Below, piece after piece: positions 22,708 through 56,827 of a stretch of 64,000 nucleotides of DNA; position 1 is the first letter of the stretch; every line of letters starts with the position of its first letter. The notes below the pieces were generated by a model. It had not been told where the DNA came from and searched no databases. It was given only the letters and a program-made list of their open reading frames with translations. Both the position numbers and the translations under genes were made by a program. The DNA lies in NCBI GenBank assembly GCA_964580215.1, contig CAZOJT010000009.1:15991-79990 (forward strand), read 5' to 3'. The stretch comes from an uncultured Ignavibacteria bacterium (lineage in GTDB: Bacteria; Zixibacteria; MSB-5A5; SM1-73).

Positions 22708-22811
22708 AGAAAGTCAGGAGTAAGAATTAAGACGGAAAAGTAATGAGAGACCAAATGATCATCTATGTCAGTAAAAATCTGGAAGCCGAAGATAGATTGG
22801 GAGAGATTTAG

Positions 22812-24266
22812 ATGGATTGGATCATGCCAGCAGTTAATTTCAAATTGATTTTGCCAGAGATCATTCTCTGTGTCTTTGCTATTTTCATACTGGTTCTGGA
22901 TCCCTTTCTTTCCAGAGATAGAAAGATTTTAACTGCTCATCTGGCTTGGATAGCCATCGTGTTATCCTTTCTGGCGAACTTGAGTCTCTGGGATTTTCAA
23001 GATACAACTTTCAGCCAAATGTTTTTGGTGGACAATTACGCCACCTTCTTTAAATTCATCTTCCTTACCGGATCGTTTCTGATCATCTTTGCCTCCATGA
23101 ATTATCTTAAAAGGGAAGAGATTTTACATGGAGAATACTTCAGTTTGATTTTGTTCTCCACCTTGGGCATGATGCTTTTAGCATCCGGCTTTGATCTGAT
23201 TGTAATCTTCTTAGGACTGGAGATCATGTCGATTTCCCTTTACGTGTTGGCTGGGTTCAAAAGAAGCGATCTAAACTCCAACGAAGCTTCCTTGAAATAC
23301 TTCTTGATGGGGGCATTTGCCACCGGCTTTTTGCTTTATGGAATTGTCATGATTTACGGAAGCGTGGGAAGCACTAACTTGGAACAGATAATCAAAAGCA
23401 TCGCCTTTGGTGAAGCCGGTCCAAATCTTTTAATCTGGGCTGGTGCGGGATTGCTATTGGTGGGCTTCGGATTCAAGATAGCTTCAGTTCCTTTTCACAT
23501 GTGGGTGCCGGACGTGTATCAGGGAGCTCCCACTCCGGTGACCGCCTTTATCTCCGCCGGTCCCAAGGCGGCTGGATTTGCGGCACTCTTGAGAGTATTT
23601 CTCTTTTCCTTCGTTACCATAAAGCTGGATTGGACCGTGATCGTCTGGATCATGGCGGCTTTGACCATGACCGTGGGCAACATCATTGCCATTGCCCAGT
23701 CTGATATAAAAAGAATGCTGGCATATTCATCTATCGCTCATGCCGGATACGTGCTTGTGGCGTTGGTGGCTGGTGGGGAGACTGGAATCTCCAGCGCGCT
23801 GTTTTATCTCTTAGCTTACACCTTTATGAACATCGGAGCTTTCACCGTGGTGATTGCGCTGGGAAAGAAGGGTCAGGAGAACACCGGTTTGGACGATTAT
23901 TCTGGATTGGGCACCAGATCTCCTCTTTTGGCTGTTCTGATGACGGTCTTTATGTTTTCCCTGGCAGGATTCCCTCCCACCGCTGGATTCATGGGAAAAT
24001 TCTATGTTTTCAGCGCGGCAGTGAAATCAGGATTTGTGGGATTGGTTATAATCGGAGTGCTGAACAGTCTGATCTCGGTTTATTACTACTTGAGAGTGGT
24101 GGTCATCATGTTCATGCACCCACCACAGCCTGAGGCGCAAAGAGTACCATTAGCTTTTGGCGCCGCTCTGGTTTTGTTGATCTCCATCTGGGGGGTTCTA
24201 CAGATGGGCATATTCCCCGACAGCCTACTTAGCCTGGCTCAAGCCTCGGTTTCATCCATATTTTAG
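22812..24266 (+). CDS. nuoN: NADH-quinone oxidoreductase subunit N
   Basis: Antiporter-like subunit in the last operon position. Confidence 0.85.
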   Translation: MDWIMPAVNFKLILPEIILCVFAIFILVLDPFLSRDRKILTAHLAWIAIVLSFLANLSLWDFQDTTFSQMFLVDNYATFFKFIFLTGSFLIIFASMNYLKREEILHGEYFSLILFSTLGMMLLASGFDLIVIFLGLEIMSISLYVLAGFKRSDLNSNEASLKYFLMGAFATGFLLYGIVMIYGSVGSTNLEQIIKSIAFGEAGPNLLIWAGAGLLLVGFGFKIASVPFHMWVPDVYQGAPTPVTAFISAGPKAAGFAALLRVFLFSFVTIKLDWTVIVWIMAALTMTVGNIIAIAQSDIKRMLAYSSIAHAGYVLVALVAGGETGISSALFYLLAYTFMNIGAFTVVIALGKKGQENTGLDDYSGLGTRSPLLAVLMTVFMFSLAGFPPTAGFMGKFYVFSAAVKSGFVGLVIIGVLNSLISVYYYLRVVVIMFMHPPQPEAQRVPLAFGAALVLLISIWGVLQMGIFPDSLLSLAQASVSSIF

Positions 24267-24759: not shown

Positions 24760-27700
24760 TTAAGATTTTCTTCTCTGGAAATCTCTGGCTTGATGCATGA
24801 AAGCTTCCAGGCGGGTGATCTCGTTGGCATCCTCCTGCCCTTCGTAGACTAAGTTGAGCCAGGGGAAGTTGCCAAAGTCCTCCCTGAGTTTCTTTGACAT
24901 GGCAGTGACAACGGTTCCGGGCATACAGGTGAAGGGCATAGTGTTCACTACTCCGGAAAGATCCTGGTTTATGTAGTCGATGGCTTTTCCAATGGATAAT
25001 ATGGCTTCTCCTCCAAATGACTCATGCAGATAAGGACTGGCAAGCTTCAGCACATCTTCGGTTTTAGGTTCGTGACATTCCAGAATGGAACCTTCCAACC
25101 GTTTCTCCAATTGGTGCTCTTTTCTTCTCTGTACCCAGTAAGTGAGCCATCCCTTCACGTACTCTTTGTATCTTCTCTCCAAGAGACTCTGTCTTTTGTA
25201 CATGTAACTGGTGTAGTTGATCCATTCACCCATGCCTGTCACCCAAGCTTCCCCTCCCAAAGTCTCGATCTTTCTCACCAGGTTGTTGTTGGAAAATCTG
25301 TTCGACCGTATATAAATCTCACCCACAACCCCAATGATGGGTTTTCTTTGTTCGCCATTTTTTTTGATTTTGGCGAACATATCCCTTGCCCAGGTGAGTA
25401 TTTCCTCGATGTCTCCTTTGGAAGCTGTGGTCTTGGATAACTGCTCTAAACACAACTGGTAAACCCGATCAGTTTCCCCTTTGTTCTTTTCGTAAGGTCT
25501 GGTCTGATGCAGAAGCTTTATCAGAAGATCTGTTGTTACCATGCTCTTCCAGGCTAATTTGCGGAAGTCACCATCAAGATTTGAGACGGTGGAGTAGCCA
25601 TCCTCGGAATCGGGGGAGATGATGGGAACGTTCGAATATCCCAACTCATCTAAGATCACACGCTGTAGGTTATGATATTCACCGAACCGACAGGGTCCAT
25701 GTGCCTGGGGCATAAAAAAGGCAATCCTTTCAGGTTTTATTCCCGGTTTTCTTAGGAGTTTCAAAAGATCGCCAGTGGTCAGAATGAAGGGATAGCACTC
25801 CTTTCCAGAGGTGAATTTTCTCCCCAGTGTGAGAGTGTCTTCATCCGACCGATCCATAACATAAGCCTCCAGCCCACAGGCGTTCAAGGCGGCTTTAAAG
25901 GCATAAGCGTGATCACACATATTGGGGATATATAAAGTTCTATGGTTCTCAGAAGCGGTGAATTTGTATCTGGGAAGCTCTAATTTTTTCTTTCTTGGCG
26001 GTTGGTATTTCTTCAAGCTGTCTAAGAATGCCTCACATCGGGTGATAACTCCTGCATCGGCTGAGTGTTCATCCAACTCGATCAATAAGAAAGGTTTTCC
26101 AGATAGATTCTTTTTAAAGAAGTGAGTGATAAAAGAATCGGGACCACAGCCGAAATTAGATATATATAAACCAAAAAGTTTTTTGTGATCTCTTAGGATC
26201 TCCGATGCGGCTAAGATATTCTGTCCATATTTCCAGTATATATTGGGGAGATGATCCTTTTTGATTTGGGGATCATGGCAAAAGAAATCCATGGGGATGG
26301 CTAACATCCCTAAATCTGCAAGTTTTTTGGGGATATTTAAGCTAATCCCGGGATCACAGGTATTGTAAGGCCTTCCCACAATTACCAGAGCCTTTTGATC
26401 TTCTTTTAGGCTCTGCAAGACTTCCTTTCCTTTCAAAGTAAGTCTTCTGTAAAACTCCTCCTGACATCTTTCCGCCTTCAGCATGGCCTTCTTTATCTGG
26501 CTCTTTCTTCTCTTCAATTCTTTTCCCAGTTTAGTGAGCGTTCTTAGAAGAATGTTTCTATCCAATTGAAAGTAGACCGGGAAAGAAAGCAGTCGGGTGG
26601 GATAGTCGTCTAAATTTATGGCGGCTTTAATCAGGTAGGGCAAAGACTGAACATAGGGACAGGCATAATTTTCCTTGTTGTGGTTATCCTCCTTTTTCAT
26701 GTCTATCAAGCTGGGGAGAAAAATGTAGTCTAACTTTTTCTTTAGAAGATTTAGAACATGACCATGCGCTACCTTGACCGGAAAACAGGTGTCTGAGAGA
26801 ACCTGTTCTGTACCCTGGCGAATTATCTGTTTGTTGGTGGGATCGGAGAGCACCACCTCAAAACCCAACTCCTCAAAGAAGGTCGCCCAGTAGGGAAAGA
26901 ACTCATGGAAGAAAAGACATAGAGGAATGCCGACCTTTTTTTTCTCTCCCTGGTTTGAATCTGAATTAGAATGTGAAGTTACAAATTCCTTATGAATGTG
27001 GAAAAGTATTCTCTCCCTTTCTTTGAAAAGATCGGGGAGGGTTGATTTTTTTGATTTTCTTTTGGTGTCATATTTTTCGCAACGGCTCCCGTAGAAAAGA
27101 GACGGCTCACCTTCCACCCTTACTTCTTTTATCTCACAGTGATTGGGGCAATCTGGACATATAAAGGTGGAAATAGAGTACTGTTTTTCAGAAAGATCGA
27201 ATCCCTTAAACTTGCTTTTGCCACCTTTATATTCCTCCATAGCCAAAATAGCGGCGCCTATGGCTCCAGTTACATCATGATGAGGAGGAACTGTAATCTT
27301 TTTTCCGGTTACCATCTCGAAAGCCGCCACCACTGCTTTGTTCCATGCCACCCCACCCTGGAAAAAGATATAGTTGCCCACCCTTTTATCACCCATCACC
27401 TTGTTCAGATAGTTATAAACGATGGAATAAGCCAGCCCTGCCACCAGATCCTCTTTAGGCACGCCGGATTGCTGATGCGCCACCAGATCCGATTCCATAA
27501 AGACGGTACAGCGTTCCCCGCAGTTGACCGGGCGTTTCGATTTAAGCGCCAGATCTCCGAATTCTTCCTCGATATTGATGTTAAGCTTTTCTGCCTGCTC
27601 CTGCAAGAAAGACCCGGTTCCAGCCGCACACACCTTGTTCATTTCAAAATCTATAACCGCTCCATCCTGCAGGCTGATGTATTTTGAATCCTGTCCTCCG

Positions 27701-28977
27701 ATCTCAAATATGGTATCCACCTTCGGATCGATGCTAACTGCGGCGACAGCCTGAGCGGTGATCTCGTTATGCACCACGTCTGCCCCCACAAAATCTCCGG
27801 TTAGGTATCTTCCTGATCCAGTGGTTCCCGTACCCAGAATATTTACCTTATCTTTAATCTGGTCGCCCACTATCTTCAGCCCACGCTTCACTGCCTCGAT
27901 GGGACGTCCCTCGGTCATAAGATAAATTCGAGAGATCACATTTTTGTCCTTATCTATTGCCACCACATTGGTGGATAAAGAACCTACATCAATTCCCAGG
28001 AAAGCATCGATTTTATCTTCATGTGGCACGTGATGATTTTTGGTGATCTCATAATATTTATTCTCTGGGAAAGCAAACACTAAAGGCTCTTTCCCCTTGT
28101 GTTCTATCCGGGGAGAAGCTAAGTATTCATTCAGCCTCTCTAAGCCCAGAAAAGGAATATCCGCCTTCTCTGTTCCCATGATGGTCAAACCTGCCCCAAC
28201 AGCTCCCATCTCCTTAAAGAATTGTGGAATTAACAACTCTCCTTCGGAGAGTCCAAATACGCTTTCAAAAGCCCTTCTTACCCCTAAGTTAGCGGCAACT
28301 CCACCCTGAAAAGAGATGGGCTTTTGGATCTTTTTCCCCTTGACGATGGAGCCTTTGAAGTTTCGTGCCATGGCAAAACATAATCCGGCAACGATATCAT
28401 AGTCCGGGGTGGCAATCTGCTGAAGGTGAATCATGTCCGATTTGGCAAAGACGCTGCATCTTCCGGCAATGCGAGGGGGATTCTTTGATTTCAGTGCCAA
28501 CTTTCCAAATTCATCCTCGATGGAGATCTTCAGCCGTTTGGCTTGCTGATCCAAAAATGATCCGGTGCCGGCGGCACAGAGCGTATTCATGGAGAAATCC
28601 TCCAGCACCGGAGCTTTGGAGCCGTCATCCTGACGCAACAGAATCAGCTTGGAGTCCTCTCCCCCCATCTCAATTATGGTTCGCACCTCCGGAGTTAAAA
28701 AGCCGGTGGCTTTTGCCTGGGCGATCACCTCGTTTACGAAGCTTCCCCCTAAGATGGAATTTATCAACTTTCCGCCGGTGCCAGTGGCGGCTAAAGATTT
28801 TATATCATCCGGATTGAATTTTTCAAAAAGATCCTCTAAGATGCCTTTTAAAGTAGGAAGTGGTTGCCCTGTAGATCTCTGGTAATAAGATCGAAGTATC
28901 TCCCTCTCAGATGAGAGAAGCACCACCTTCACGCTGACTGATCCTATATCAATGCCCAAATAGAGATTCTTATTCAT
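24760..28977 (-). CDS. fusion protein with two BadF/BadG/BcrA/BcrD-type CoA-substrate-specific enzyme activase ATPase domains and a 2-hydroxyacyl-CoA dehydratase (HgdB/D-like) C-terminal region, 1405 aa
   Basis: N-terminus LYLGIDIGSVSVKVVLL and a second copy FLGIDVGSLSTNVVAID with AAGTGSFL motifs. The C-terminal half is dehydratase-like. Confidence 0.8.
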   Translation of the reverse strand: MNKNLYLGIDIGSVSVKVVLLSSEREILRSYYQRSTGQPLPTLKGILEDLFEKFNPDDIKSLAATGTGGKLINSILGGSFVNEVIAQAKATGFLTPEVRTIIEMGGEDSKLILLRQDDGSKAPVLEDFSMNTLCAAGTGSFLDQQAKRLKISIEDEFGKLALKSKNPPRIAGRCSVFAKSDMIHLQQIATPDYDIVAGLCFAMARNFKGSIVKGKKIQKPISFQGGVAANLGVRRAFESVFGLSEGELLIPQFFKEMGAVGAGLTIMGTEKADIPFLGLERLNEYLASPRIEHKGKEPLVFAFPENKYYEITKNHHVPHEDKIDAFLGIDVGSLSTNVVAIDKDKNVISRIYLMTEGRPIEAVKRGLKIVGDQIKDKVNILGTGTTGSGRYLTGDFVGADVVHNEITAQAVAAVSIDPKVDTIFEIGGQDSKYISLQDGAVIDFEMNKVCAAGTGSFLQEQAEKLNINIEEEFGDLALKSKRPVNCGERCTVFMESDLVAHQQSGVPKEDLVAGLAYSIVYNYLNKVMGDKRVGNYIFFQGGVAWNKAVVAAFEMVTGKKITVPPHHDVTGAIGAAILAMEEYKGGKSKFKGFDLSEKQYSISTFICPDCPNHCEIKEVRVEGEPSLFYGSRCEKYDTKRKSKKSTLPDLFKERERILFHIHKEFVTSHSNSDSNQGEKKKVGIPLCLFFHEFFPYWATFFEELGFEVVLSDPTNKQIIRQGTEQVLSDTCFPVKVAHGHVLNLLKKKLDYIFLPSLIDMKKEDNHNKENYACPYVQSLPYLIKAAINLDDYPTRLLSFPVYFQLDRNILLRTLTKLGKELKRRKSQIKKAMLKAERCQEEFYRRLTLKGKEVLQSLKEDQKALVIVGRPYNTCDPGISLNIPKKLADLGMLAIPMDFFCHDPQIKKDHLPNIYWKYGQNILAASEILRDHKKLFGLYISNFGCGPDSFITHFFKKNLSGKPFLLIELDEHSADAGVITRCEAFLDSLKKYQPPRKKKLELPRYKFTASENHRTLYIPNMCDHAYAFKAALNACGLEAYVMDRSDEDTLTLGRKFTSGKECYPFILTTGDLLKLLRKPGIKPERIAFFMPQAHGPCRFGEYHNLQRVILDELGYSNVPIISPDSEDGYSTVSNLDGDFRKLAWKSMVTTDLLIKLLHQTRPYEKNKGETDRVYQLCLEQLSKTTASKGDIEEILTWARDMFAKIKKNGEQRKPIIGVVGEIYIRSNRFSNNNLVRKIETLGGEAWVTGMGEWINYTSYMYKRQSLLERRYKEYVKGWLTYWVQRRKEHQLEKRLEGSILECHEPKTEDVLKLASPYLHESFGGEAILSIGKAIDYINQDLSGVVNTMPFTCMPGTVVTAMSKKLREDFGNFPWLNLVYEGQEDANEITRLEAFMHQARDFQRRKS

Positions 28978-35244: not shown

Positions 35245-36447
35245 ATGAACGTTAAAACTAAAGAAGTGGGGCTTACCGGAAATCTGCGGACGGTTTCTTT
35301 ATCCGACCTGCTACAGTTGATCAGTGCGGCTGGAAAGACGGGAATGCTTCTGATCTCCCGGGATGACCAGAAAAGAGAGATATATTTCATGAAGGGAAAT
35401 ATCATCTACGCCTCCTCCTCGGGAAACGAAGATGAGCTTTTAGGAAATCTTGTTCTAAGGAGGAGGAAGATTCTCGAGCCAGATCTTAAGAGAGCTTTAA
35501 GCCTTCAGAAGCTGACCCGGAAAAGATTGGGCGCCATCCTCCTGGAGATGGGGGTTTTAACCAAAGAGGAGTTGATAGAATGCTTACAATATCAGATAGA
35601 GGAGATAATTTATAACCTGTTTGGCTGGAATTCAGGCGAGTTCATCTTTTACGAGGGGAGGTTGCCACCGGCAGACCAAATCACCACCCAGCTCAATACC
35701 ATGAACGTGATCATGGAGGGATCAAGGAGGATCGATGAATGGATACAAATCCAAAAAATTCTTCCGCCTGATGACGTGAAACTTCAGATGGTAAAAAATC
35801 CCAGGATAAAGTCGAGCACAGTGACCATGCCTGTAAATGACATACAGCTACTTCCCTTCATCGATGGAGAGAGAACCATCTCCGAGCTTTTGCAGGTAAG
35901 CCCTTTGAGCGAATTTTACACACGCAAGGCGTTATATAACCTGATCACTTCTGGCTTGGTTGAGGCAGGGGAGAAAAAAAAGATAAGAAAACAAGAGACG
36001 AACGGAGAGAAGCTCCTTTTGTATGTGATGATCAAACTATACTCTCAGTCCTATCAGACCATTGAGAAAATGGCCTCCCAAAAGTTGGGAGAGGGAGCCA
36101 AGAGGATTTTAAAGAGATGTTTTGACGCTCAAAAGTCTTTAAACCCTCTCTTGAGTAAACTGGAAAGCTCTGAGAATTTCTTAGACTTTCGCCATCTGGA
36201 AAACTCGGTAAATAAAATCCGTCAGCCCATCCGATTTCACAAGCTGATGGATGGATTAAATGATCTGCTTTTAGAATTCTTGAGATCTATCTCCAGAAGT
36301 TTGGGAAGAAACTTAACCAGGCAGGTTATCTCTCAGATCAAGAAGGAGACAGCCCAGGTGGTAGCTGAGCAGAGATGGATTGCAAAAGAGTATGAGTTGG
36401 AAGAAGAGCTTTTGAAAACTCTAAAGAAAAGCCAGCGATGTTTATAG
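35245..36447 (+). CDS. DUF4388 (PatA-N-like) domain protein with T2SSE_N/GspII-like helical repeat
   Basis: N-terminus LSDLLQLISAAGKTGMLLISRDDQKREIYFMKGNIIYASS resembles DUF4388. KRLGAILLEMGVLTKEELIECLQ resembles the PilB/GspE N-terminal domain motif. Confidence 0.65.
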   Translation: MNVKTKEVGLTGNLRTVSLSDLLQLISAAGKTGMLLISRDDQKREIYFMKGNIIYASSSGNEDELLGNLVLRRRKILEPDLKRALSLQKLTRKRLGAILLEMGVLTKEELIECLQYQIEEIIYNLFGWNSGEFIFYEGRLPPADQITTQLNTMNVIMEGSRRIDEWIQIQKILPPDDVKLQMVKNPRIKSSTVTMPVNDIQLLPFIDGERTISELLQVSPLSEFYTRKALYNLITSGLVEAGEKKKIRKQETNGEKLLLYVMIKLYSQSYQTIEKMASQKLGEGAKRILKRCFDAQKSLNPLLSKLESSENFLDFRHLENSVNKIRQPIRFHKLMDGLNDLLLEFLRSISRSLGRNLTRQVISQIKKETAQVVAEQRWIAKEYELEEELLKTLKKSQRCL

Positions 36448-36878
36448 AAAAACTTCATAAGTTCTTGAAAGGAAATATAAGTAGAAAACTAACCTGTGTT
36501 ATCAGCTTCTGGTTGGTATTTTTTTCTGCACAGGTCTCCTTCGCCTATGAAAGTGCCGATATTTTCCGGGCGGAGATTCGAGGCTCCGGCTCTTTATCGG
36601 TTCTTTCAGCACTTTTTGATATTTTGCTTCTGGTGGGGGCGTTTGCCTGTTTTCTTATCTCGGTGAGAGTTAAATCATTCTTAAAAGATGGGGAGCTGGC
36701 TTCCGGATGGACTCTTTTTTCGCTCTCCTTTGTCCTTTTGTTTGTGGCTCAGCTTCTTAGCTTTTCTTTAAGCGTTGGTCTTCTGAATATCTCCCCCAAC
36801 ATAATCTCCTCACTTCGTGTTTTGTTTATCCTTTTTTTAGCTTCTGGTATTTACTTTATGAAAAAAGTCCTGAGTTGA
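36438..36878 (+). CDS. small 4-TM membrane protein
   Basis: Overlaps the upstream stop by 10 nt (translational coupling); hydrophobic segments. Confidence 0.5.
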   Translation: MFIEKLHKFLKGNISRKLTCVISFWLVFFSAQVSFAYESADIFRAEIRGSGSLSVLSALFDILLLVGAFACFLISVRVKSFLKDGELASGWTLFSLSFVLLFVAQLLSFSLSVGLLNISPNIISSLRVLFILFLASGIYFMKKVLS

Positions 36879-37138
36879 TCTGACACCTTTAAGTTTATCA
36901 GTCTTATGAACTTTCGGATTTCTCTCAAGCCCAGAAAGTAAGGGGACTTAGCCCCATTTTTTCAACCACCAAAGTTAAGTAACCGAATTTGACTGTCGAT
37001 AAACCTATTAGTTAAATCTTAAGGGTCTTCGGATTTGTCTTAAAACATCTATCCCGGGGAATCGCATCTTTGTCGGAGGTGAATTTTTGTAGCATCTGTG
37101 GTTTAGGGGGGGAAGTGTAGCTTAAGCTGAGAGGATTT

Positions 37139-37987
37139 ATGCAGCCAACTGTACAGTTGGATGAAAGAATCTCCAAATGTGAGGAGATTTTAGCTCACAA
37201 TCCCGAATCCATGATTTTTGCGGCCCTATCGGATGCCTATCGTAAGAAGGGAGATTTGGCTAAAGCGTTTCATGCCTGCACTCGAGGTTTAAAGCTTCAT
37301 CCCGATTACGGTCCCGGACATCTGGTGATGGCAAAGATCAACATGGAAAGAGGAATGTATTCCGAGGCGGAAAAGGAGCTTGCTCTGGCGGTTCAGGCAG
37401 ATGGCAAAACCAGAGCCACCGAGCTTCTTCTGGCTCAGATTCTCATGAAGAAAGATCAAATAAAAGATGCCAAAAAGATCTTAGAAAAGCTCAAAGCCAC
37501 TGATCCGGAAAATGAGGTGGTGGGCGAGCTTCTGAAGTCTATAAAGCAAAAAGCGGATTTCGGCAGGATCCATGGGACCGACAAGCCGGGCTACGATGTG
37601 ATGACGGTGCAGGAACGCTGGCATATAGAGAAGGTGGTGGATCTTAAAGACGGGGTGCATTATTTGAAATCCCTGCCGGACGTATTGGGGGCGTTGGTGG
37701 TAGGAGAGGATGGATTGGTGCTGGAGAGCAGGCTAAACCCCAATTTTAAAAAAGAGCGAATCGGGGCAATCGCCACTTGCATCACCCAATGTGTGAAAGA
37801 TGGGGTAGGTGGGATAGGGTTTGGAGAATATGAACAGGTCTTGATAGAGACGGAAAACCTTGAGTTTTGGATAATGAAATTCAACAACCAAGCTTTTGTA
37901 TTGTGTTGTGCCCCAGAAGCCAATCTGGGAGCTTTAAAGATAAGAGTGGGTGAGCTTCTGGAACACCTCTCCAGAAACCTTGAATAA
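37139..37987 (+). CDS. TPR repeat + Roadblock/LC7 domain fusion protein
   Basis: N-terminal TPR-like helices. C-terminal LGALVVGEDGLVLESRL…FWIMKFNNQAFVLCCAPEANLGALKIRV is the Roadblock/LC7 pattern. Confidence 0.7.
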   Translation: MQPTVQLDERISKCEEILAHNPESMIFAALSDAYRKKGDLAKAFHACTRGLKLHPDYGPGHLVMAKINMERGMYSEAEKELALAVQADGKTRATELLLAQILMKKDQIKDAKKILEKLKATDPENEVVGELLKSIKQKADFGRIHGTDKPGYDVMTVQERWHIEKVVDLKDGVHYLKSLPDVLGALVVGEDGLVLESRLNPNFKKERIGAIATCITQCVKDGVGGIGFGEYEQVLIETENLEFWIMKFNNQAFVLCCAPEANLGALKIRVGELLEHLSRNLE

Positions 37988-37999
37988 GAGGGAGGTAAG

Positions 38000-38929
38000 G
38001 TGAATTCTGATTACAGAGGGGAGTTGAGAGGAGTTCTTTTGGTCTCCTTTTTTATCATGGTGGTTCCACTGATATTCTTCCCCAGGGATTTCGGGCTGAA
38101 ATTGGATTGGTCGCTCTTTTTGCTTTTCGCTTTTGAGTTGGGCTGGTATATGCTGATCCTGTTTGTCATGTTTTCCAAAGCATCAGCTCCAAAGGTGTTT
38201 CTATTTGGCCTGTTGACTCTGGGCTATCGAATTGGCTTGGGCATTGGATTTGGTATACTTCTTCTGGTTATGTTTCCTTTGTCTTTATCCTCCTCGCTTC
38301 AGTTGGGAATCTGTCAATATATGCCGGCTTTTCTTCTTCAAGCTTTGATGTCTCCATTTGTGCTCAAATCACTTTTTGAATCCTCTATGGGGAAAACAAA
38401 AAAAGCTGAAGAGACGCCAATGGAGTTTGAGCGAAGGGTTGCAGAACCCCTTCCTTCTTCTTTTACTCCTGAAATATCAAAAGAGAGGTTAGATGGCAGA
38501 AGATCAATTCCCTCACAAAAGGAGATTAAGGTGGCAGGAGAAGACAAATTAGAAAACATTTTGCACTACCTGAGAGAGTATGCCGGAGTGAAGGCGGCTA
38601 TTCTGGTGGATCAAGAGGGTTTGGTGGTGGCGAAAGATTCTTTATCCGATTATGATCCGGAGAAGGTTGCCTCCTTCGCTCGGTGCTTGAAGGAGACGAA
38701 TGACCAAATACTTCACAAGATGGGAGAGAAGACCTCGGAACGAATTGGAATTTATACCCCGGATATGTGGATATGCTTAAATCAGATAGAAGGCTTCACA
38801 TTGGTGGTGGTGTCCGATCGCCGCACGGATGAGTTGCTTTCGGTTCGAATATTACAGTCCACCGGAATGATAAAGAAAATTCTTTCCGAGAGGTACCAGC
38901 AAAATATCCTAAAAGTTGTGGAGGCATGA
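38000..38929 (+). CDS. membrane-anchored (4-TM) Roadblock/LC7 domain protein
   Basis: N-terminal TM helices. C-terminal AAILVDQEGLVVAKDS…FTLVVVSDRRTDELLSVRI is a Roadblock fold. Confidence 0.65.
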   Translation: MNSDYRGELRGVLLVSFFIMVVPLIFFPRDFGLKLDWSLFLLFAFELGWYMLILFVMFSKASAPKVFLFGLLTLGYRIGLGIGFGILLLVMFPLSLSSSLQLGICQYMPAFLLQALMSPFVLKSLFESSMGKTKKAEETPMEFERRVAEPLPSSFTPEISKERLDGRRSIPSQKEIKVAGEDKLENILHYLREYAGVKAAILVDQEGLVVAKDSLSDYDPEKVASFARCLKETNDQILHKMGEKTSERIGIYTPDMWICLNQIEGFTLVVVSDRRTDELLSVRILQSTGMIKKILSERYQQNILKVVEA

Positions 38930-39281
38930 TATGTATAAAATATTGGAAGAGCTGAACAAAACTACCGGGATCAACGGCAGCATGGTAGTAGGAGAGGACG
39001 GCATCGTGATCGCCGCTGATTTAAATACCCAGCTTCAAGACGAGGCAGTGGGGGCTTTGGCGGCTTCCATCGTCAGCACGGTCAAGAAGTCGATGGAACG
39101 CCTTTCCAATGAGGATTTAAAACAGATAACCGTGGAGGCCGGCAAAGGCAAGTTATTTTTTACCGAAGTGGGGATAGGCATCCTGGCGGTCACCACGGAT
39201 TCTCAGGTAAATGTGGGGCTGGTTCGGCTGGAGATAAAAAATGCGGCGGAAAAAATAAAGCTTGCCCGAAAGTCCGCCTGA
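38916..39281 (+). CDS. Roadblock/LC7 domain protein (MglB paralogue, MglC-like)
   Basis: 121 aa: INGSMVVGEDGIVIAADL…ILAVTTDSQVNVGLVRLEI. Overlaps the upstream gene by 14 nt. Confidence 0.7.
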   Translation: MWRHDMYKILEELNKTTGINGSMVVGEDGIVIAADLNTQLQDEAVGALAASIVSTVKKSMERLSNEDLKQITVEAGKGKLFFTEVGIGILAVTTDSQVNVGLVRLEIKNAAEKIKLARKSA

Positions 39282-39313
39282 GACAGTCTGAAGTTGCCAA
39301 ATGGAGACAAAAG

Positions 39314-40300
39314 ATGGCATCTATAAATTATGCCTTCAAGGAGATCTCGTGTAAGATAGTTTTCTACGGTCCCGGACTTTCCGGAAAAACCACCAACCTC
39401 CAATACGTTCATCAAAAGATCCCGCCTCAGACCAGAGGGAACTTGATCTCTTTAGCCACTGATCAGGACAGAACCCTTTATTTTGATTTTCTTCCAGTGG
39501 ACATCGGCAAGATACATGGGTTTTCCACCAAGTTTCAGCTTTACACCGTCCCCGGGCAGGTGTATTACAATGCTACCAGAAAGCTGGTCTTAAGAGGTGT
39601 GGATGGTTTGGTCTTCGTGGCAGACTCCCAAAAATCCAAAATGGATGAGAACATGGAAAGCTTTCAGAATCTGGTGGAAAATCTGTCAGAATACGGATAC
39701 GACATAGACAAGATTCCTTTAGTGTTTCAATATAACAAAAGAGACTTTCCTGACATCAGCTCGTTGGAGGAACTAGGGAAAGCATTAAACCCTGAGGGGC
39801 TTCCCTACTTTGAAGCGGTTGCCACCAAAGGGATAGGTGTATTTGATGTCCTGAAGTGTATCAGCAAATTGGTCTTGGATCAAGCCAAACGTAGACAACT
39901 CTTTCCGGAAAGGGAGATTGAAACCGAGGAGGTTGAAAAAGCGCCGGCTTTGCTGAGTCTCTCCCAGATGCCGCAAACTGAGCAAATGGCAGAAGCTTTG
40001 AACTCCTCAACCCCTGTTGAGAACTTGACCCAAGAGGCGGTAACCACCATCACCCAAAAGAAACCTGAGCCTCCAGCAGAGGAGATAACCCCAAAGCCAC
40101 AAGATACCCACAAAGAAACAAAACCCGAAATCGAGTTGGATATAGGAGAAATCGCCGAGAAAGAAAAGGTGAAGATGGATCAGATTCCCTCCAGGGAGAG
40201 CCCCACCATAATAAGCTGGTCAGCCGGAAAATCCGGCAAAAAGACCAAATCGAAAGGATTCTTTTTATGGCGCTTTGTGAATAAACTTTTCAATAGATAG
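39314..40300 (+). CDS. mglA: MglA-family Ras-like GTPase with ~130-aa C-terminal extension
   Basis: Residues 1-195 align to Myxococcus MglA at roughly 60-65% identity: P-loop GPGLSGKTT, switch I DRTLYFDF (Arg finger), TVPGQ (catalytic Gln), NKRD. The extension is an acidic/Pro-rich linker ending in the basic amphipathic tail KSGKKTKSKGFFLWRFVNKLFNR. Confidence 0.85.
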   Translation: MASINYAFKEISCKIVFYGPGLSGKTTNLQYVHQKIPPQTRGNLISLATDQDRTLYFDFLPVDIGKIHGFSTKFQLYTVPGQVYYNATRKLVLRGVDGLVFVADSQKSKMDENMESFQNLVENLSEYGYDIDKIPLVFQYNKRDFPDISSLEELGKALNPEGLPYFEAVATKGIGVFDVLKCISKLVLDQAKRRQLFPEREIETEEVEKAPALLSLSQMPQTEQMAEALNSSTPVENLTQEAVTTITQKKPEPPAEEITPKPQDTHKETKPEIELDIGEIAEKEKVKMDQIPSRESPTIISWSAGKSGKKTKSKGFFLWRFVNKLFNR

Positions 40301-40309
40301 AGCGGAGGT

Positions 40310-40822
40310 GTGAAATTGAGACAGGAGGATCTGGTAATCTATGAGGAGCAGATCGAAAAGATAGAGAAAGCTCTGAGCAGGTTAATCGAGGATGCACAAG
40401 CCAAGTGTGTGCTCCTGGTGGACAAGGATGGCCATTTGATCACTCGTCAGGGTTTCACTCAATCTTTGGATACCACTGCCCTGGCGGCGCTTTTAGCTGG
40501 AAGCTTTGCCTCCACCCGAGAGATTGCCCGTCTGGTGGGAGAGCCGGAGTTTTCCGTTCTTTTCCATCAGGGCAAGAAGGATCATATTCATATCACTCTG
40601 GTGGGGGAAAGGACCATTCTGGCGGTCGTCTTTGATGATCGAACCACCATCGGCATGGTTCGGCTTTATGCTAAAGAGGCTACTGAAAATCTGGGAAAGG
40701 TTTTCTCTTCTGCCAACCGTCAGGACCGCCAAACTGAAGAGGAGAAGAAAACCGACTTAGATTCAGAGTTTTCGACTTCTTTAGAAAACAGGCTGGATGA
40801 TATCTTTTCTGAGCAATCCTGA
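40310..40822 (+). CDS. mglB: MglB (Roadblock/LC7 GAP of MglA)
   Basis: Aligns along its full length with M. xanthus MglB (VLLVDKDGHLI…DTTALAAL…GMVRLYAKEA…DDIFSE). Confidence 0.8.
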   Translation: MKLRQEDLVIYEEQIEKIEKALSRLIEDAQAKCVLLVDKDGHLITRQGFTQSLDTTALAALLAGSFASTREIARLVGEPEFSVLFHQGKKDHIHITLVGERTILAVVFDDRTTIGMVRLYAKEATENLGKVFSSANRQDRQTEEEKKTDLDSEFSTSLENRLDDIFSEQS

Positions 40823-40969
40823 TGGAGGATATCTCAAAAGTCCGAGAAAGGGAAGTTTTCAAAAGTGTATCATCGGGTTGAGCAGAGAAAGTGTGAACAC
40901 ATCTGAGAAACAACAAAATGAGCAGTCTCATCATATAGAGTGACCTTAAGTGAGATTCTGAGTTTTTAG

Positions 40970-42670
40970 GTGAAAGTTATGTCAAGCGAATTAGGAGAAA
41001 TGCTGGTTAAGGCAGGCAAGATATCGGGGGAACAGCTTACCCAGGCTTTGGACTTACAAAAAACCAACAAGGAGAAGTTAGGGGATATTCTGATTAAGAC
41101 GGGAGCCCTCTCCAGTGAGGAGGATCTCTCAGAATTTATCGGTAGGCAGTTAAATATTGGCGCTTTGAGGCTATCTGATATCGAGTTGAATCCAGAGGTG
41201 GTGAAGATGATTCCCCCAGACATTGCCAGAAAGTTCAACGTCATGGCCGTCGGCAAGCTGGGCAAGACTTTGATAGTAGCTATTTCGGATCCTAATAACA
41301 TTTACGTTTTAGACGCCATAAAGTTTATCACTGGATGCGCGGTTCAGCCGGTTATCAGCCCGGAGAAAGCCATCCAGAAGGCGATAGATACCTATTATCG
41401 GGATGCCGCAGGAATCGACCAGATACTTAAGGGACTGAAAGAAGGGGACCTGGAGGTGATTGAGGAGAGCGATGAGGTTCCCACCGAGCAGGACCTAATA
41501 TCCCAGGTGCAGGATAAACCTTTAGTCAAGCTGGTGGATTCCATCATCGGCGATGCCATCCGAAGAGGTTGTTCGGACATTCACATAGAAACCTATGAAA
41601 AAAGAATAAGGGTCAGATCCAGATTGGATGGAAATTTGCAAGAGATGTCTCCCCTACCTTTCAAATATCGTGCCGCTATCGTTTCCAGGATAAAGATAAT
41701 GGCGGATTTAGACATCTCTGAGAGAAGATTGCCTCAGGATGGCAGGATAAAGGTGAAGTTCGGTGATCGGGCAGTGGATCTAAGAGTATCCGTTCTTCCC
41801 ACCATATTTGGGGAGAAGGTGGTGATGCGAATTCTGGATCCGGGGAGCGTTAACGTCGATTTAACAAAATTAGGTTTCCCGCAACACTCTCTTAAGAAGT
41901 TCGAAAAAACCATCCACCTTCCCTACGGCATGATCCTGGTGACTGGTCCCACCGGAAGTGGGAAAACCACCACCCTCTATTCTGCCTTAAAACAGATTAA
42001 CACCACGGATATCAATATAATGACCGCCGAAGATCCGGTGGAGTTCAATTTCGAGGGAATAAATCAGGTGGCGGTGAAAAGCGAGATCGGACTGACCTTT
42101 GCCGCTTCTTTAAGGTCGTTTTTGAGGCAGGACCCGGACGTAATCATGGTAGGAGAGATCAGGGATACCGAGACCGCAGAGATCGCGGTGAGAGCCGCCT
42201 TAACCGGACATTTGGTCTTCTCCACCCTGCATACCAACGATGCTCCCAGCACCATCGACCGGTTGATCGATATGGACATTCCCAACTACCTGGTGGCTTC
42301 CTGTGTCAGGTTGATCATGGCTCAAAGGATGGTGCGCAAGATCTGCCCTAATTGTAAACACCAGGTTCAAATTCCCTCAGAGACCCTCCAGATGCTGGGA
42401 CTTGTTGACAACGAAATCAAAGGTCTCAAAGTTTATGAAGGGAAGGGTTGTTCGGAATGCAATAATACCGGCTATTCAGGAAGAACCGGTATTTTTGAGG
42501 TGATGCCCATGACTCCTGCAATTGAAAGGATGATAGTTTCCAGAGCCTCCAGCGCGGAGATAAGGCAACAGGCTATAACCGAGGGCATGCTCACTTTAAG
42601 AGTTGCCGCTTTGGATAAGTTAAAGCAAGGCGTTACCACTGTAGAAGAGGTTTTAGCAGTAACTGCTTGA
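40970..42670 (+). CDS. pilB: type IV pilus assembly ATPase PilB
   Basis: T2SSE_N domain, Walker A GPTGSGKTT, Asp box, tetracysteine motif CPNC…CSEC. Confidence 0.9.
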   Translation: MKVMSSELGEMLVKAGKISGEQLTQALDLQKTNKEKLGDILIKTGALSSEEDLSEFIGRQLNIGALRLSDIELNPEVVKMIPPDIARKFNVMAVGKLGKTLIVAISDPNNIYVLDAIKFITGCAVQPVISPEKAIQKAIDTYYRDAAGIDQILKGLKEGDLEVIEESDEVPTEQDLISQVQDKPLVKLVDSIIGDAIRRGCSDIHIETYEKRIRVRSRLDGNLQEMSPLPFKYRAAIVSRIKIMADLDISERRLPQDGRIKVKFGDRAVDLRVSVLPTIFGEKVVMRILDPGSVNVDLTKLGFPQHSLKKFEKTIHLPYGMILVTGPTGSGKTTTLYSALKQINTTDINIMTAEDPVEFNFEGINQVAVKSEIGLTFAASLRSFLRQDPDVIMVGEIRDTETAEIAVRAALTGHLVFSTLHTNDAPSTIDRLIDMDIPNYLVASCVRLIMAQRMVRKICPNCKHQVQIPSETLQMLGLVDNEIKGLKVYEGKGCSECNNTGYSGRTGIFEVMPMTPAIERMIVSRASSAEIRQQAITEGMLTLRVAALDKLKQGVTTVEEVLAVTA

Positions 42671-42801
42671 CCATATCAAAAGAGTTAAAAGGACATGGAG
42701 GGAAACAAAAGGCCGGTTTAAGAATCAAATTCCCAAGTCGATAATATATAAGGGAACTTTTTACCTTAAGATCTGGGATAAAGAAAAAACAGGAGCAAAA
42801 G

Positions 42802-43896
42802 ATGGTCACCTTACGGGAACTCTTGGAATTAATCGTGAAGAAGAATGCCTCCGACCTTCATTTAACTGTGGGTTCGCCACCCCGGTTGAGAATAGATGGA
42901 AAGCTGGTCAAAACCGATTTTGATATTTTAACCGCAGAGGGGACCAAAAAGCTGGCTTACAGCATAATGAATGAGAAGCAGAGGCAGAAATTTGAGGAGA
43001 AAAGCGAACTTGACCTTTCCTTTGGGATTGAAAACTTGAGCAGATTCAGGTGTAACGTTTTTATGCAGAGGGGGAATGTGGCGGTAGCTATAAGACAGAT
43101 CCCTTTCCGCATCCCCAGTTTCGAGGAGTTAGGCATACCCAAGGTGGTAGCCGAGTTGGCTGAGTTGCCCCGGGGTTTGGTGCTGATAACCGGACCCACC
43201 GGAAGCGGAAAATCCACCAGCTTAGCCGCCCTGATCAATAAGGTAAACCAGGAAAGATACTGTCACATCCTGACGGTGGAGGATCCCATCGAGTATCTTC
43301 ATCGGCACAATTGTTCACTGATCAACCAGAGGGAGGTTTATGCCGATACCCAGTCCTTTGCCAGTGCTTTAAAATACGCCCTAAGAGAGGATCCGGATGT
43401 GGTTTTAGTGGGAGAGATGAGAGATTTAGAAACCATGGAAGCCACCTTAAACATCTCCGAGACCGGACATTTAGCCTTTGCCACACTGCATACCAACTCC
43501 TGTGCCGAGTCGATTAACAGAATCATCGACGTGTTTCCCAGCAATCAGCAGGAGCAGGTTCGGGTTACCGTCTCCTTCGTTTTGCAGGCGGTGATAAGCC
43601 AGCAGTTGATCCCCCAAATAGGAGGAGGGAGGGTGTTGGCTTTGGAGATCATGATCTGCACACCGGCCATCAGGGCATTAATCCGGGATGATAAGATTCA
43701 TCAGATCTATAGCCTGATGCAGGCGGGACAGAAGTATGGCATGAGGACTATGAATCAATCTTTAGCCGAGCTTTATCTGAAACATAAAATCACCCTGGGT
43801 GACGCTATGGGAAGAAGCTCAAATGTGCAGGAGCTGAATGAGCTTTTAGCTAGAAAATCTGAGATAAGCCGGCAACGGCGTACAGCTGGAGTATAA
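42802..43896 (+). CDS. pilT: twitching motility retraction ATPase PilT
   Basis: N-terminal ASDLHLTVGSPPRLRIDG, Walker A GPTGSGKST, AIRALIRD motif. Confidence 0.9.
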   Translation: MVTLRELLELIVKKNASDLHLTVGSPPRLRIDGKLVKTDFDILTAEGTKKLAYSIMNEKQRQKFEEKSELDLSFGIENLSRFRCNVFMQRGNVAVAIRQIPFRIPSFEELGIPKVVAELAELPRGLVLITGPTGSGKSTSLAALINKVNQERYCHILTVEDPIEYLHRHNCSLINQREVYADTQSFASALKYALREDPDVVLVGEMRDLETMEATLNISETGHLAFATLHTNSCAESINRIIDVFPSNQQEQVRVTVSFVLQAVISQQLIPQIGGGRVLALEIMICTPAIRALIRDDKIHQIYSLMQAGQKYGMRTMNQSLAELYLKHKITLGDAMGRSSNVQELNELLARKSEISRQRRTAGV

Positions 43897-44040
43897 TTCG
43901 CAGGAGTGAAATTAAGGAAAACTCAAAACAAAAGCATAACTTTTCAGATAGCGCAGACATTTACTCTAAGAAGCCTGATTAGGCTCTTGTGGAGAGAATC
44001 GGGCTTTAGGGGTGACAGTTTCTGAGGGAAGGAGGTTAAA

Positions 44041-45240
44041 TTGCCAGTTTTCACCTATAAGGGAAGGACATTAGGGGGAACTCAAGTTACAGGTGAGTTG
44101 AAGGTAAAAAACCGGGCTGAGTTGGAAAGGATCCTGCGGAGCAAAAAGGTTTTAGTGTCTCAGGTCTCCACCAAGCCTTCTCAGATAAGCATAAGAATCG
44201 GCACCGGAATAAAGAAGGTGCATATCTCCCGATTCACCCGGCAATTCGCCACCATGATCGGAGCCGGACTCCCCATGGTCCAATGTCTGGAGATATTATC
44301 CCAGCAGATGGAATCAGCAGAACTGAGAAGGGTCGTCGGCGAGATAAAGGAAAGCGTGCAGGCAGGTACCACCTTGTCAGAAGCCTTAGCCCGACACAAA
44401 AAGGTCTTTGATGATCTTTATGTTAATATGGTGGACGCGGGTGAGATCGGAGGAGCTTTAGACACCATTCTGGTTCGACTGGCCATTTACCGGGAAAAGG
44501 CAGATGCTCTGGTGCGTAAGGTAAAAGGAGCCTTAATCTATCCGGCGGTGGTGATGACCGTAGCTATCGGAGTCACCTTCATCATGTTGACTTACATAGT
44601 TCCCGTCTTTGCCAAGATGTTTTCCGGTCTGGGCGCGGAGTTACCTGCCCCCACTCAGTTCATTCTGTCTTTGAGTGCATTCATCCGAGGCAATATCTTA
44701 ACCGGAGTAGTTCTGTTGGTCCTTTTGATCATCGCATATAAATTTTATTCAAGGACCGATAAAGGCAGATACAATATTGATTACCTGAAGTTGCGAATTC
44801 CGCTTATTGGGGATTTGATAAGGAAGAGTTCCATCGCAAGATTTTCGCGCACACTGGGAACCTTGATCTCCTCAGGAGTTTCCATTCTGGATGCGCTGGA
44901 CATCACCGCCCGCGCATCGGGCAATCGGGTGATACATGATGCCATAAAAAAATCGGTTCTCTCCATCGCAGAAGGAGAAACCATAACCCAGCCTTTGAAG
45001 CAGTGTGGAGTCTTTCCTCCCATGGTTACCCAGATGATCTCAGTGGGAGAAAAAACCGGAGGGCTGGATGAGATGCTTTCCAAGATTGCCGACTTCTATG
45101 ATGAGGAGGTGGACGCCGCCGTGGCGGCTTTAACCTCCGTCATTGAGCCGGTGATCATAGTTTTCATGGGAGTGGTGATCGGAGGAATCTTGATAGCCAT
45201 GTACCTCCCTATGTTCGATATTATTGGAAAGATAAGCTAA
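44041..45240 (+). CDS. pilC: type IV pilus platform protein PilC (GspF family)
   Basis: Two T2SF repeats; 3 TM. Confidence 0.85.
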   Translation: MPVFTYKGRTLGGTQVTGELKVKNRAELERILRSKKVLVSQVSTKPSQISIRIGTGIKKVHISRFTRQFATMIGAGLPMVQCLEILSQQMESAELRRVVGEIKESVQAGTTLSEALARHKKVFDDLYVNMVDAGEIGGALDTILVRLAIYREKADALVRKVKGALIYPAVVMTVAIGVTFIMLTYIVPVFAKMFSGLGAELPAPTQFILSLSAFIRGNILTGVVLLVLLIIAYKFYSRTDKGRYNIDYLKLRIPLIGDLIRKSSIARFSRTLGTLISSGVSILDALDITARASGNRVIHDAIKKSVLSIAEGETITQPLKQCGVFPPMVTQMISVGEKTGGLDEMLSKIADFYDEEVDAAVAALTSVIEPVIIVFMGVVIGGILIAMYLPMFDIIGKIS

Positions 45241-53291: not shown

Positions 53292-53708
53292 TTATTCCTG
53301 TTGACCCATTTGGATAGCTTCACAAAGACGGCATCTGTTCTCTGCTCGATGCAAAGCCGTCAGAGCACGGGGAATGTCGATTTCCTTCTCCTTTGATCTC
53401 AACCTTTGCCTGGCTCGCTCCAAAGCTTTCTTGGCTCTTTCGTAATCTATGTCATCAACGAATTCAATGGAATGTGCTAAAATAGTTACCTGGTTCTTAA
53501 ACACCTCCATGAAGCCACCACCGATGGCAAAGAACAACTCCTGATTTTTGTCATCTTTTACCGTGAGCTTGCCCGGAACCAAAGCGGTGATCAAAGGAGC
53601 ATGATCGGTTAGAACCCCCAGGTATCCTTCAGAGCCGGGAGCGATGAGGGAGACCACGTCATCTTCATAAAATATTTTCTCTGGCGTTACGATAGTCAGC
53701 AGATACAT
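53292..53708 (-). CDS. atpC: F1 ATP synthase epsilon subunit
   Basis: 138 aa with a beta-sandwich N-terminus and helical C-terminus pattern, in the last position of the atp operon. Confidence 0.85.
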   Translation of the reverse strand: MYLLTIVTPEKIFYEDDVVSLIAPGSEGYLGVLTDHAPLITALVPGKLTVKDDKNQELFFAIGGGFMEVFKNQVTILAHSIEFVDDIDYERAKKALERARQRLRSKEKEIDIPRALTALHRAENRCRLCEAIQMGQQE

Positions 53709-53915
53709 GTTATTTGACTTTCTTTCGCCCCGCCAAAGGCGGGACAGCTACCATTTTTGCCGCGTGGTGAAAATCAGTTTATAGGGCGGGATGAATTCCC
53801 GCCCCTATGGGGGGTATTCGTTTATCATCTCCTACGTATCCTGCGGACATAGGGCAGGGCATTCAGCCCTGCCAATAAGATATTTAACCGGTCCCTGAAA
53901 GTTTACAAACCAATT

Positions 53916-55355
<1,440 letters not shown>

Positions 55356-55396
55356 TCAAGTTACGTCTTTTGAAAAAATACCTGGGAAAAAAGAAT

Positions 55397-55745: not shown

Positions 55746-55775
55746 CCTGAAATTTATCCTTTATTTCTATTCTAT

Positions 55776-56639: not shown

Positions 56640-56827
56640 GTTGTTATTACCCCCTCACCCTTTCCCTCTCCCCCAGGGGAGAGGGGATAGCTTCATAGAG
56701 GATGCGGCTACCTCTTTACCTTGTCGTTTAATGAGCGCATTTTGGTAGCCGCAGGTCATTTGACTCAAATGAGCTTCAGCCTGCGTTTTGGGTTTTTAAT
56801 CCATACGAGGATTCTAAATTTCGACCG

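Follow-up and report, generated by a model that had tools for sequence, protein, structure and literature searches.

MglA-ext and its G domain

The window analyzed here is a 64-kb stretch (64,000 nucleotides) of contig CAZOJT010000009.1, assigned by GTDB to the Zixibacteria, and the element in question is mglA-ext, a gene for an MglA-type GTPase that carries a long C-terminal extension. It is part of a tight cluster of 10 genes on the same strand (35245–45240), which encode, in this order, a PATAN protein, orf146, a TPR-Roadblock fusion, a transmembrane (TM)-Roadblock protein, a small Roadblock protein, MglA-ext, MglB, PilB, PilT, and PilC; a gene for a PilS-like kinase follows PilC in the same cluster. 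The reading frame of mglA-ext is uninterrupted, and a ribosome-binding site (GGAGA) lies 9 nt 5′ of it. The coordinates of all features are collected in Table 1.

The first 193 residues form the G domain. Myxococcus xanthus MglA (6h17/5ymx) aligns over all of them with an E-value of 6e-79, and Thermus thermophilus MglA (3t12) aligns with the G domain at 1.5e-71; the identity to these known group 1 MglAs is ~61%. The P-loop GxxxxGK[ST] reads G19-P-G-L-S-G-K25-T26, the intrinsic arginine finger is found as D52-R53-T54, the G3 motif reads L-Y-T78-V-P-G-Q82 and includes the catalytic Gln82, and the G4 motif NKxD is present as N141-K-R-D144. The P-loop, R53, T54, T78, Gln82, and NKRD are all invariant among 117 homologues. 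Thr78 also takes the place of the usual G3 aspartate in M. xanthus MglA (TxxGQ), as reported (PMC3000849). Judged by these intact catalytic residues, the G domain is predicted to be catalytically complete, and by sequence the protein is an MglA of group 1, that is, a polarity GTPase of the Ras superfamily, just as the preliminary description of this DNA had named it. Current database entries call such proteins "signal recognition particle receptor subunit beta" or "SRP receptor subunit beta," "GTPase," or "hypothetical protein."

Members of the MglA family are regarded as single-domain proteins of ~195 residues, and canonical short MglAs measure 191 to 212 residues in 43 other genomes among the matches listed. 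The window protein departs from this with its 135-residue C-terminal extension; by its G domain, it is an architectural variant of the family and still a member of it.

The C-terminal extension

The extension comprises residues 194 to 328 (nt 39893–40297), which agrees with the position and the length of ~130 residues given to it before, and the protein ends in ...KSGKKTKSKGFFLWRFVNKLFNR, exactly as had been stated. Its composition is dominated by Glu (20), Lys (15), Pro (12), Thr (12), and Ser (10), and searches of residues 194 to 328 against Pfam, NCBIfam, and PDB sequences return zero matches.

The extension is no chance feature and is conserved far beyond this one gene. The same 328-residue protein occurs, residue for residue, on five to six independent public contigs, and the tail is present in 120 of the 120 best homologue clusters (51–92% identity, 313–404 residues), which align through the last residue of the query and whose named members are labeled Zixibacteria. 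At least 116 of these clusters stay in frame across the linker into two conserved islands, "TIISWSAG" and then a polybasic run with "GFFLWRFLxKLFNR." A frame that survives the drift of the spacer and runs on into a conserved end means that the extension is translated and that its terminus has a function. The comparison with related genomes that had been proposed as a check thus finds the extension in all close relatives and no sign of a missed frameshift or stop.

Conservation by region, computed on the alignment of 117 homologues, separates four parts. The G domain has a mean top-residue frequency of 0.88 and an entropy of 0.53 bits, the linker (194–293) of 0.37 and 2.71 bits, the block around TIISWSAG (294–306) of 0.67 and 1.27 bits, and the terminal block with GFFLWR..KL (315–328) of 0.70 and 1.18 bits. 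F316 and L318 are each conserved at 0.97.

The linker is acidic, with a net charge of −11 over the first 103 residues of the extension, compared with +8 over the final 32. Its conservation is limited to the first ~8 residues (K/R-Q-L-F-P-E-R-E), and its length varies between 95 and 186 residues within the Zixibacteria clade. The Uversky charge–hydropathy plot places it on the disordered side (76% disorder-promoting residues), and the AlphaFold2 (AF2) model of the full-length protein gives it a predicted local distance difference test (pLDDT) score of 24 to 32. The extension had been called disordered from its composition; for the linker, this view holds by the charge–hydropathy plot, the residue composition, the variable length, and a pLDDT below 50.

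The linker is followed by the island TIISWSAG, in which hydrophobic and Ser positions alternate. It is unstructured in the AF2 model of the isolated tail. In other clades, TIISWSAG is replaced at this distance from the tail by "ILAVSV," "PxMAPSxR," or "FFTSVN...RPVNP." The island might act as a short linear motif that is recognized by a partner. The polybasic run comes next, and the median charge of the last 25 residues is +7 in 116 homologues.

The terminal helix

The last 14 residues follow the ~100-residue flexible-type linker at the extreme C terminus, which is the position of a membrane-targeting sequence (MTS) of the MinD/FtsA type, and they combine a hydrophobic face with flanking basic residues, as the amphipathic helix of an MTS does. 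The segment LWRFVNKLFNR (318–328) has a hydrophobic moment (μH) of 0.78, the highest of any 11-mer in the whole protein, at a mean hydrophobicity (<H>) of 0.57; for the terminal 14-mer, the values are 0.45 and 0.70. The comparison peptides, the MTSs of Escherichia coli MinD and of FtsA, have μH values of 0.41 and 0.61 and <H> values of 0.27 and 0.41, respectively. The moment of the last 12 residues, averaged over 117 homologues, has its maximum at 90 to 100° (0.75/0.67) and reaches only 0.15 to 0.29 at 130 to 180°; therefore, the helical amphipathic pattern itself is conserved, beyond the identity of the residues. AF2 predicts a helix at residues 311 to 326 with a pLDDT of 75 to 84 for the isolated 38-residue tail with its own alignment. 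The tail is thus predicted to be both helical and amphipathic, and the earlier reading of it as a basic, MinD/FtsA-like amphipathic helix is borne out by the moment, its angular peak, and the predicted helix.

The helix contains ~8 large hydrophobic residues, among them one Trp and four Phe, whereas the MinD-like tails found in sister clades have 4 to 5. Being more hydrophobic, it may bind the membrane in monomeric form and in a largely constitutive way. A lipid modification of the C terminus was considered and rejected, as there is neither a Cys nor a CAAX box near the terminus.

When the last ~35 residues were turned into a profile and compared with 1.84 billion representative proteins, 12 matches resulted, all of them fragments of the same MglA clade except for one spurious repeat protein (P0130). 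Since no other family matches the profile, the tail does not belong to the mobile modules for protein binding, and the matches give no independent hint at a partner.

Extended MglAs in other phyla

When each GTDB species was represented by one genome and matches were ranked by their similarity to the query, a scan yielded at least 80 MglA loci, and relatives with more than 70% identity are absent from the loci listed. Each match was extended to its stop codon and classed by its C terminus. The automatic criterion of μH > 0.5 proved too strict and passed over tails of the GFFKRLFG type, so that nine loci were classed by eye.

Short MglAs of 191 to 212 residues are found at 43 loci or more, in Myxococcota, Acidobacteriota, Gemmatimonadota, and others. 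The extended MglAs fall into several classes. At least 17 loci, from Zixibacteria, Ignavibacteria, and Fibrobacterota/Chitinivibrionia, encode an extension that ends in a polybasic stretch and a short amphipathic tail; example ends are KKKRGFFKRLFGIK, KKKKKGFFLFRLFGKK, and QQKGFIKKLFNKDNTQ. A C-terminal hydrophobic segment of 20 to 23 residues terminates the extension at 8 loci or more, all of which belong to Planctomycetota among the matches listed. The C terminus is of another or unclassified kind at no fewer than 9 loci, for example in Fibrobacter, Sumerlaeota, Latescibacterota, and Holophagae, and three further extended loci run into a contig end and stay unclassified (L022, L036, and L077). 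Hence, the extended MglA is a widespread architecture and more than the peculiarity of one gene, a point that the preliminary description had missed.

Within the amphipathic class, "KKK-GFFKRLFG-K" or, more generally, a GFF(K/L)RLFG-type sequence forms the end of the extended MglAs from other Zixibacteria, Ignavibacteria, and Fibrobacterota. The MTS of E. coli MinD is KGFLKRLFGG (PMC5471200). The 361-residue MglA of one Zixibacteria locus (L009, 5558–6643) has the C terminus KPGFLKRLFGNK, whose eight-residue stretch GFLKRLFG equals the core of this MTS.

The Planctomycetota proteins (L029, L037, L044, L045, L053, L056, L078, and L083; match start ~10001 in most) have 311 to 400 residues and possess an Ala/Pro/Arg-rich linker of low complexity, with basic residues preceding the hydrophobic segment; one of them ends in ...RLVLMIAVGAVIVGTIGFLVLNYL. 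From their sequences, they appear to be tail-anchored by a TM segment. Because two chemically different anchors occupy the same position in orthologues, membrane attachment would be the selected function.

In a midpoint-rooted neighbor-joining tree of the G domains, the three anchored groups form three separate clades outside the large clade of short MglAs. The nearest relative of the window MglA in this tree is encoded by a contig labeled Terriglobales (Acidobacteriota; L005, DATKKH010000158.1) that nevertheless holds a full Zixibacteria-type cluster; mis-binning and horizontal transfer are both possible explanations of this label.

Several further architectures were seen in the scan, in Holophagae (L074, 767 residues), Latescibacterota (L068, 360 residues), Fibrobacter (L025/L027, 313–316 residues), and Chlorobiales (L049, 235 residues). 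They comprise MglAs fused to larger C-terminal regions, extensions that lack a hydrophobic end, and a short extension of 40 residues that terminates in DFFKNLQNKMK, possibly a weak amphipathic helix.

Organization of the gene cluster

The neighbors of mglA-ext are summarized in Table 1 together with the regions of the protein. The TM-Roadblock protein has ~4 N-terminal hydrophobic segments within residues 9 to 104 (Kyte–Doolittle) in front of its C-terminal Roadblock domain and is a predicted membrane-integral, MglB-like protein. Residues 66 to 117 of the PATAN protein match a cyclic di-GMP-binding motif related to MshE (NF053729, 43.6 bits at a cut-off of 38), and the PilB next in the cluster carries an MshEN domain; a cyclic di-GMP input to the module is suggested by these two features.

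Table 1. Features of MglA-ext, its gene cluster, and the rest of the window (nt positions in the window)
Feature	Position	Strand	Evidence or remark
mglA-ext coding sequence, 328 residues plus stop	39314–40300	+	List of open reading frames (ORFs) and sequence
MglA G domain, residues 1–193	39314–39892	+	End-to-end alignment to MglA structures; residues invariant in 117 homologues
Acidic Glu/Pro/Thr/Lys-rich linker, residues 194–296, predicted disordered	39893–40201	+	Composition, Uversky plot, entropy, AF2 pLDDT
Short motif PTIISWSAG, residues 297–305	40202–40228	+	Top-residue frequency 0.75–0.92 at 298–304
Polybasic run KSGKKTKSK, residues 306–314 (+5)	40229–40255	+	Charge in homologues
C-terminal amphipathic helix GFFLWRFVNKLFNR, residues 315–328, putative MTS	40256–40297	+	
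PATAN (DUF4388) protein	35245–36447	+	PF14332, 1e-34
orf146, 146 residues			Between PATAN and TPR-Roadblock genes
TPR-Roadblock fusion, 282 residues	37139–37987	+	TPR_19 5e-13, Robl_LC7 8.5e-7; kept in 13 loci
Integral-membrane Roadblock protein (TM-Roadblock)	38000–38929	+	PF03259 at residues 185–271; kept in 12 related loci
Small Roadblock/LC7 protein, 121 residues, directly upstream of mglA-ext	38916–39281	+	PF03259 2.7e-14; PDB Roadblock matches
mglB, 170-residue Roadblock GTPase-activating protein (GAP) with C-terminal helix	40310–40822	+	9 nt downstream of mglA-ext; M. xanthus MglB 6izw_B, E = 9e-38, C-terminal FSE region covered; NF052242 1e-26
pilB	40970–42670	+	T2SSE/MshEN matches
pilT	42802–43896	+	T2SSE match
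pilC	44041–45240	+	T2SSF match
Peptidase M6 with type IX secretion system sorting domain	270–2138	−	
Cohesin/dockerin protein	6741–8480		
Complex I (nuo) operon and F-type ATP synthase operon	8866–24266 and 53292–61092 (−)		Flank the motility cluster
ORF of 1405 residues, unannotated	24760–28977	−	
Two tandem paralogues of ~623 residues	49160–53033		Many YCF48/BNR (PSII_BNR) repeats

Gene order was compared by tblastn searches of the cluster proteins against the listed MglA loci. Among the matches listed, 13 Zixibacteria/Ignavibacteria loci (L004–L015 and L041) preserve the entire order. Every class of extended MglA has a PATAN gene no more than ~5 kb away and, in most cases, a small Roadblock gene in front of mglA. 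The small Roadblock gene is kept there even in the TM class of Planctomycetota (six of eight loci), and three phyla have the PATAN gene upstream of their extended MglAs; a survey of the family from 2014 mentions only occasional PATAN neighbors of MglA (PMC4316618). Among the same matches, mglB is located downstream in the extended-MglA loci wherever it was found (mglA–mglB) and upstream in the short-MglA loci (mglBA; 40 of the 40 in which it was found). Therefore, the anchored MglAs differ from the canonical ones in their operon design too.

The preliminary description had further proposed that the tail might replace polar landmark proteins of the RomR/RomX type. Among the scanned ORFs of at least 110 residues in the window, no receiver-domain protein was found. 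In M. xanthus, romR and romX are not known to be linked to mglBA; for this reason, and as the window spans only 64 kb, the absence of RomR/RomX from it carries no weight. The locus encodes extra rather than fewer candidate landmark or regulator proteins, namely the three added Roadblock proteins and the PATAN protein.

As to the rest of the window, the motility cluster is flanked by the operons of complex I and the F-type ATP synthase. The two paralogues with YCF48/BNR repeats are encoded in tandem downstream of the pilus genes and the PilS-like kinase gene. A cohesin/dockerin protein, an M6 peptidase with a sorting domain of the type IX secretion system, and one large unannotated ORF complete the list.

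A probable membrane-anchored polarity switch

The tail is probably a membrane tether of the MglA G domain, as its sequence and those of its relatives suggest, with the comparison across relatives as the strongest argument. Canonical M. xanthus MglA by itself does not bind to lipid interfaces in vitro (PMC13408092), so the tail would add a property that is missing from the core. The following arrangement is proposed. The acidic, disordered spacer of ~100 residues would link the G domain to the C-terminal MTS, in which the basic residues would bind the head groups of anionic phospholipids while the aromatic Phe/Trp/Leu face of the helix would insert in the cytoplasmic leaflet of the inner membrane. 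This would confine MglA to the membrane surface, and the linker, repelled by the membrane because of its acidity, may give the G domain a reach of several nanometers toward its partners. Herein, the GTPase would cycle at the membrane with the GAP MglB and three extra Roadblock proteins, one of them membrane-integral, and MglA, MglB, and the Roadblock proteins could jointly control the neighboring type IV pilus (T4P) motor PilB/PilT/PilC. In this arrangement, the regulators would supply polar specificity, in place of the recruitment of a soluble MglA. The data show that the protein is an MglA, that its tail is conserved and has the character of an amphipathic helix, that related MglAs end in MinD-type or TM segments, and that synteny is kept; lipid binding itself, the role of the spacer, and the link to T4P polarity are inferred.

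Some points weigh against a tether. Of all shuffles of the same 14 residues, 18% reach the observed moment of the 14-mer, which is unexceptional in this respect because the segment is very hydrophobic overall. In the full-length AF2 model (117 homologues), the tail is unstructured (pLDDT 37–42). This model is poor as a whole, with a mean pLDDT of 50.9, a G domain between 35 and 93, and residues 199 to 328 below 50 and devoid of secondary structure, which is weakly consistent with disorder; because of its overall quality, it is uninformative on the tail either way. Binding to lipid alone does not account for the strong conservation of TIISWSAG, which points to a further protein partner. The figures for the prevalence of the classes are not free of bias because the GTDB loci were ranked by similarity to the query, and the neighbor-joining tree that separates the anchored groups carries no support values.

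Alternative readings

The tail could instead be a docking peptide, with the helix, the TIISWSAG strand, or both binding a co-encoded partner and no lipid anchor at all; candidate partners would be a Roadblock dimer, PilB/PilT, or the TPR-Roadblock protein, whose TPR domain could bind the tail, as it is common for such domains to hold C-terminal peptides. In favor of docking, the 13 Zixibacteria/Ignavibacteria loci keep the genes for the TPR-Roadblock, TM-Roadblock, and Roadblock proteins along with the tail, and TIISWSAG is conserved as strongly as the helix and shows an alternation like that of a β-strand. TPR proteins are also among the effectors or partners of MglA elsewhere: SgmX is one example (PMC13408092), and a study of Bdellovibrio MglA is a second (PMC3983030). 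However, the polybasic and amphipathic tail is kept in Fibrobacterota/Chitinivibrionia, whose loci lack genes for TPR-Roadblock and TM-Roadblock proteins in the vicinity, docking of a peptide does not predict the TM segment that stands in place of the tail in Planctomycetota, and the tail closely resembles a proven lipid-binding MTS. Docking in place of membrane binding is, hence, unlikely.

A second alternative, compatible with a membrane tether, is a switch as in Arf/Sar1. Herein, the helix or TIISWSAG would dock on the G domain of GDP-bound MglA, possibly at the edge of the β2 strand that moves in the "β-screw" of MglA, and would be freed for the membrane in the GTP form, so that membrane binding would be regulated and not constitutive. 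The interswitch toggle of Arf expels its amphipathic helix, and the β2 shift of MglA resembles this movement. The shift amounts to two residues in the β2 register upon GTP binding, as reported (PMC3199381). A switch of this kind would give a role to the second conserved island, TIISWSAG, which is without an assigned one, and it would suit the MinD-type tails of the Ignavibacteria class, which are weak anchors (4–5 hydrophobic residues) of the sort that usually needs regulation or cooperativity. On the other hand, in the AF2 model, poor as it is, the tail does not dock on the G domain, a variable linker of 100 to 340 residues would be an odd way of coupling to a specific surface, and the Planctomycetota versions would be permanently anchored by their TM helix. 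Coupling of the tail to the nucleotide state is, therefore, quite improbable.

That a missed stop or a frameshift joins mglA to other or noncoding sequence, for which the unusual length compared with the canonical 195-residue MglA is the sole argument, has practically no chance of being right, as this artefact is refuted by the identical copies on independent assemblies and by the at least 116 homologue clusters that stay in frame through a divergent linker to a conserved C-terminal motif, in addition to the continuous ORF and the mglB start only 9 nt beyond the mglA-ext stop.

Meaning of a probable built-in anchor

A full-text search of the literature found no account of an MglA with a membrane anchor or a C-terminal extension. 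Each of the parts is known by itself, namely the switch, the MTS of the MinD type, and the tail anchor; their combination, its breadth, and the distinct layout of the operon seem to be undescribed.

Those small GTPases of prokaryotes that have been studied well, M. xanthus MglA among them, behave as soluble proteins and are brought to their site by protein partners, whereas nearly all eukaryotic switches of the Ras superfamily are membrane-anchored. If the predicted anchor of MglA is real, models of polarity outside Myxococcus would shift to a two-dimensional, membrane-confined GTPase cycle with its specificity in the regulators. Nature would also have performed an experiment by exchanging an amphipathic helix and a TM anchor on the same switch. 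The conserved 10-gene T4P polarity cluster is a possible compact model for the control of twitching motility by a GTPase in bacteria of the FCB group.

A more far-reaching reading, doubtful at present, takes the anchored MglA as an old and distinct branch of the family, defined by the linker–polybasic–anchor architecture, the gene order Roadblock–mglA–mglB, an upstream PATAN gene, and an exchangeable anchor. The latter would have been swapped between a MinD-like helix (Zixibacteria, Ignavibacteria, and Fibrobacterota) and a TM segment (Planctomycetota). The soluble M. xanthus MglA might then be a derived state, and membrane binding could additionally be gated by the nucleotide state via TIISWSAG. 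If such an old branch exists, the supposedly eukaryotic principle of a C-terminal hypervariable region (HVR) plus anchor for switches of the Ras superfamily would already be present in bacteria.

Comparison with known systems

MglA-ext shares with the MglAs of M. xanthus and T. thermophilus the P-loop, R53, the Thr78-type G3 motif, Gln82, NKxD, a cognate MglB, and the linkage to genes of T4P motility. It differs from them in its length (328 versus ~195 residues), in possessing a disordered linker and a basic amphipathic C-terminal helix, in the gene order mglA–mglB instead of mglB–mglA, and in the three extra Roadblock proteins and the PATAN protein encoded around it. In M. xanthus, MglA is soluble and lacks lipid binding of its own (PMC13408092), whereas the window MglA carries a putative anchor.

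The tail resembles the MTSs of MinD and FtsA in its location at the extreme C terminus, the preceding flexible linker, the short amphipathic helix, and the flanking Lys/Arg residues, and the ends of sister MglAs (GFLKRLFG/GFFKRLFG) are nearly identical to the MTS of E. coli MinD, KGFLKRLFGG. However, the host protein is a Ras-like GTPase as opposed to an ATPase of the ParA/MinD type or an actin homologue, and the tail in the window is longer and far more hydrophobic than the MinD MTS. Membrane binding of MinD needs ATP-driven dimerization. The similarity between the MglA tails and the MinD MTS is probably convergent.

Arf and Sar1 are likewise small GTPases with a membrane-binding amphipathic helix of their own, which is predicted for MglA-ext. 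Their N-terminal helix packs directly on the G domain and follows its nucleotide state, whereas that of MglA-ext is C-terminal and ~100 disordered residues away. With the Rag GTPases and Ragulator, the system would share the assembly of a small GTPase and several Roadblock proteins at a membrane, one Roadblock partner being membrane-bound. The 121-residue Roadblock protein shows weak similarity to LAMTOR2 (E = 0.1). In Ragulator, the membrane anchor resides on the scaffold, lipidated LAMTOR1, and not on the GTPase, and the resemblance is organizational only.

As in the eukaryotic Ras, Rho, and Rab proteins, for instance K-Ras4B, a G domain is followed by a variable disordered region, a polybasic run, and a hydrophobic C-terminal anchor. 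The putative anchor of the MglAs is a peptide helix, or a TM segment in Planctomycetota, in place of a prenyl group, with no CAAX box or Cys; the linker in the window is acidic and 5 to 10 times longer, and homology of the tails is not implied. If the anchor is real, the extended MglAs would bear on the origin of the design of G domain, HVR, and anchor.

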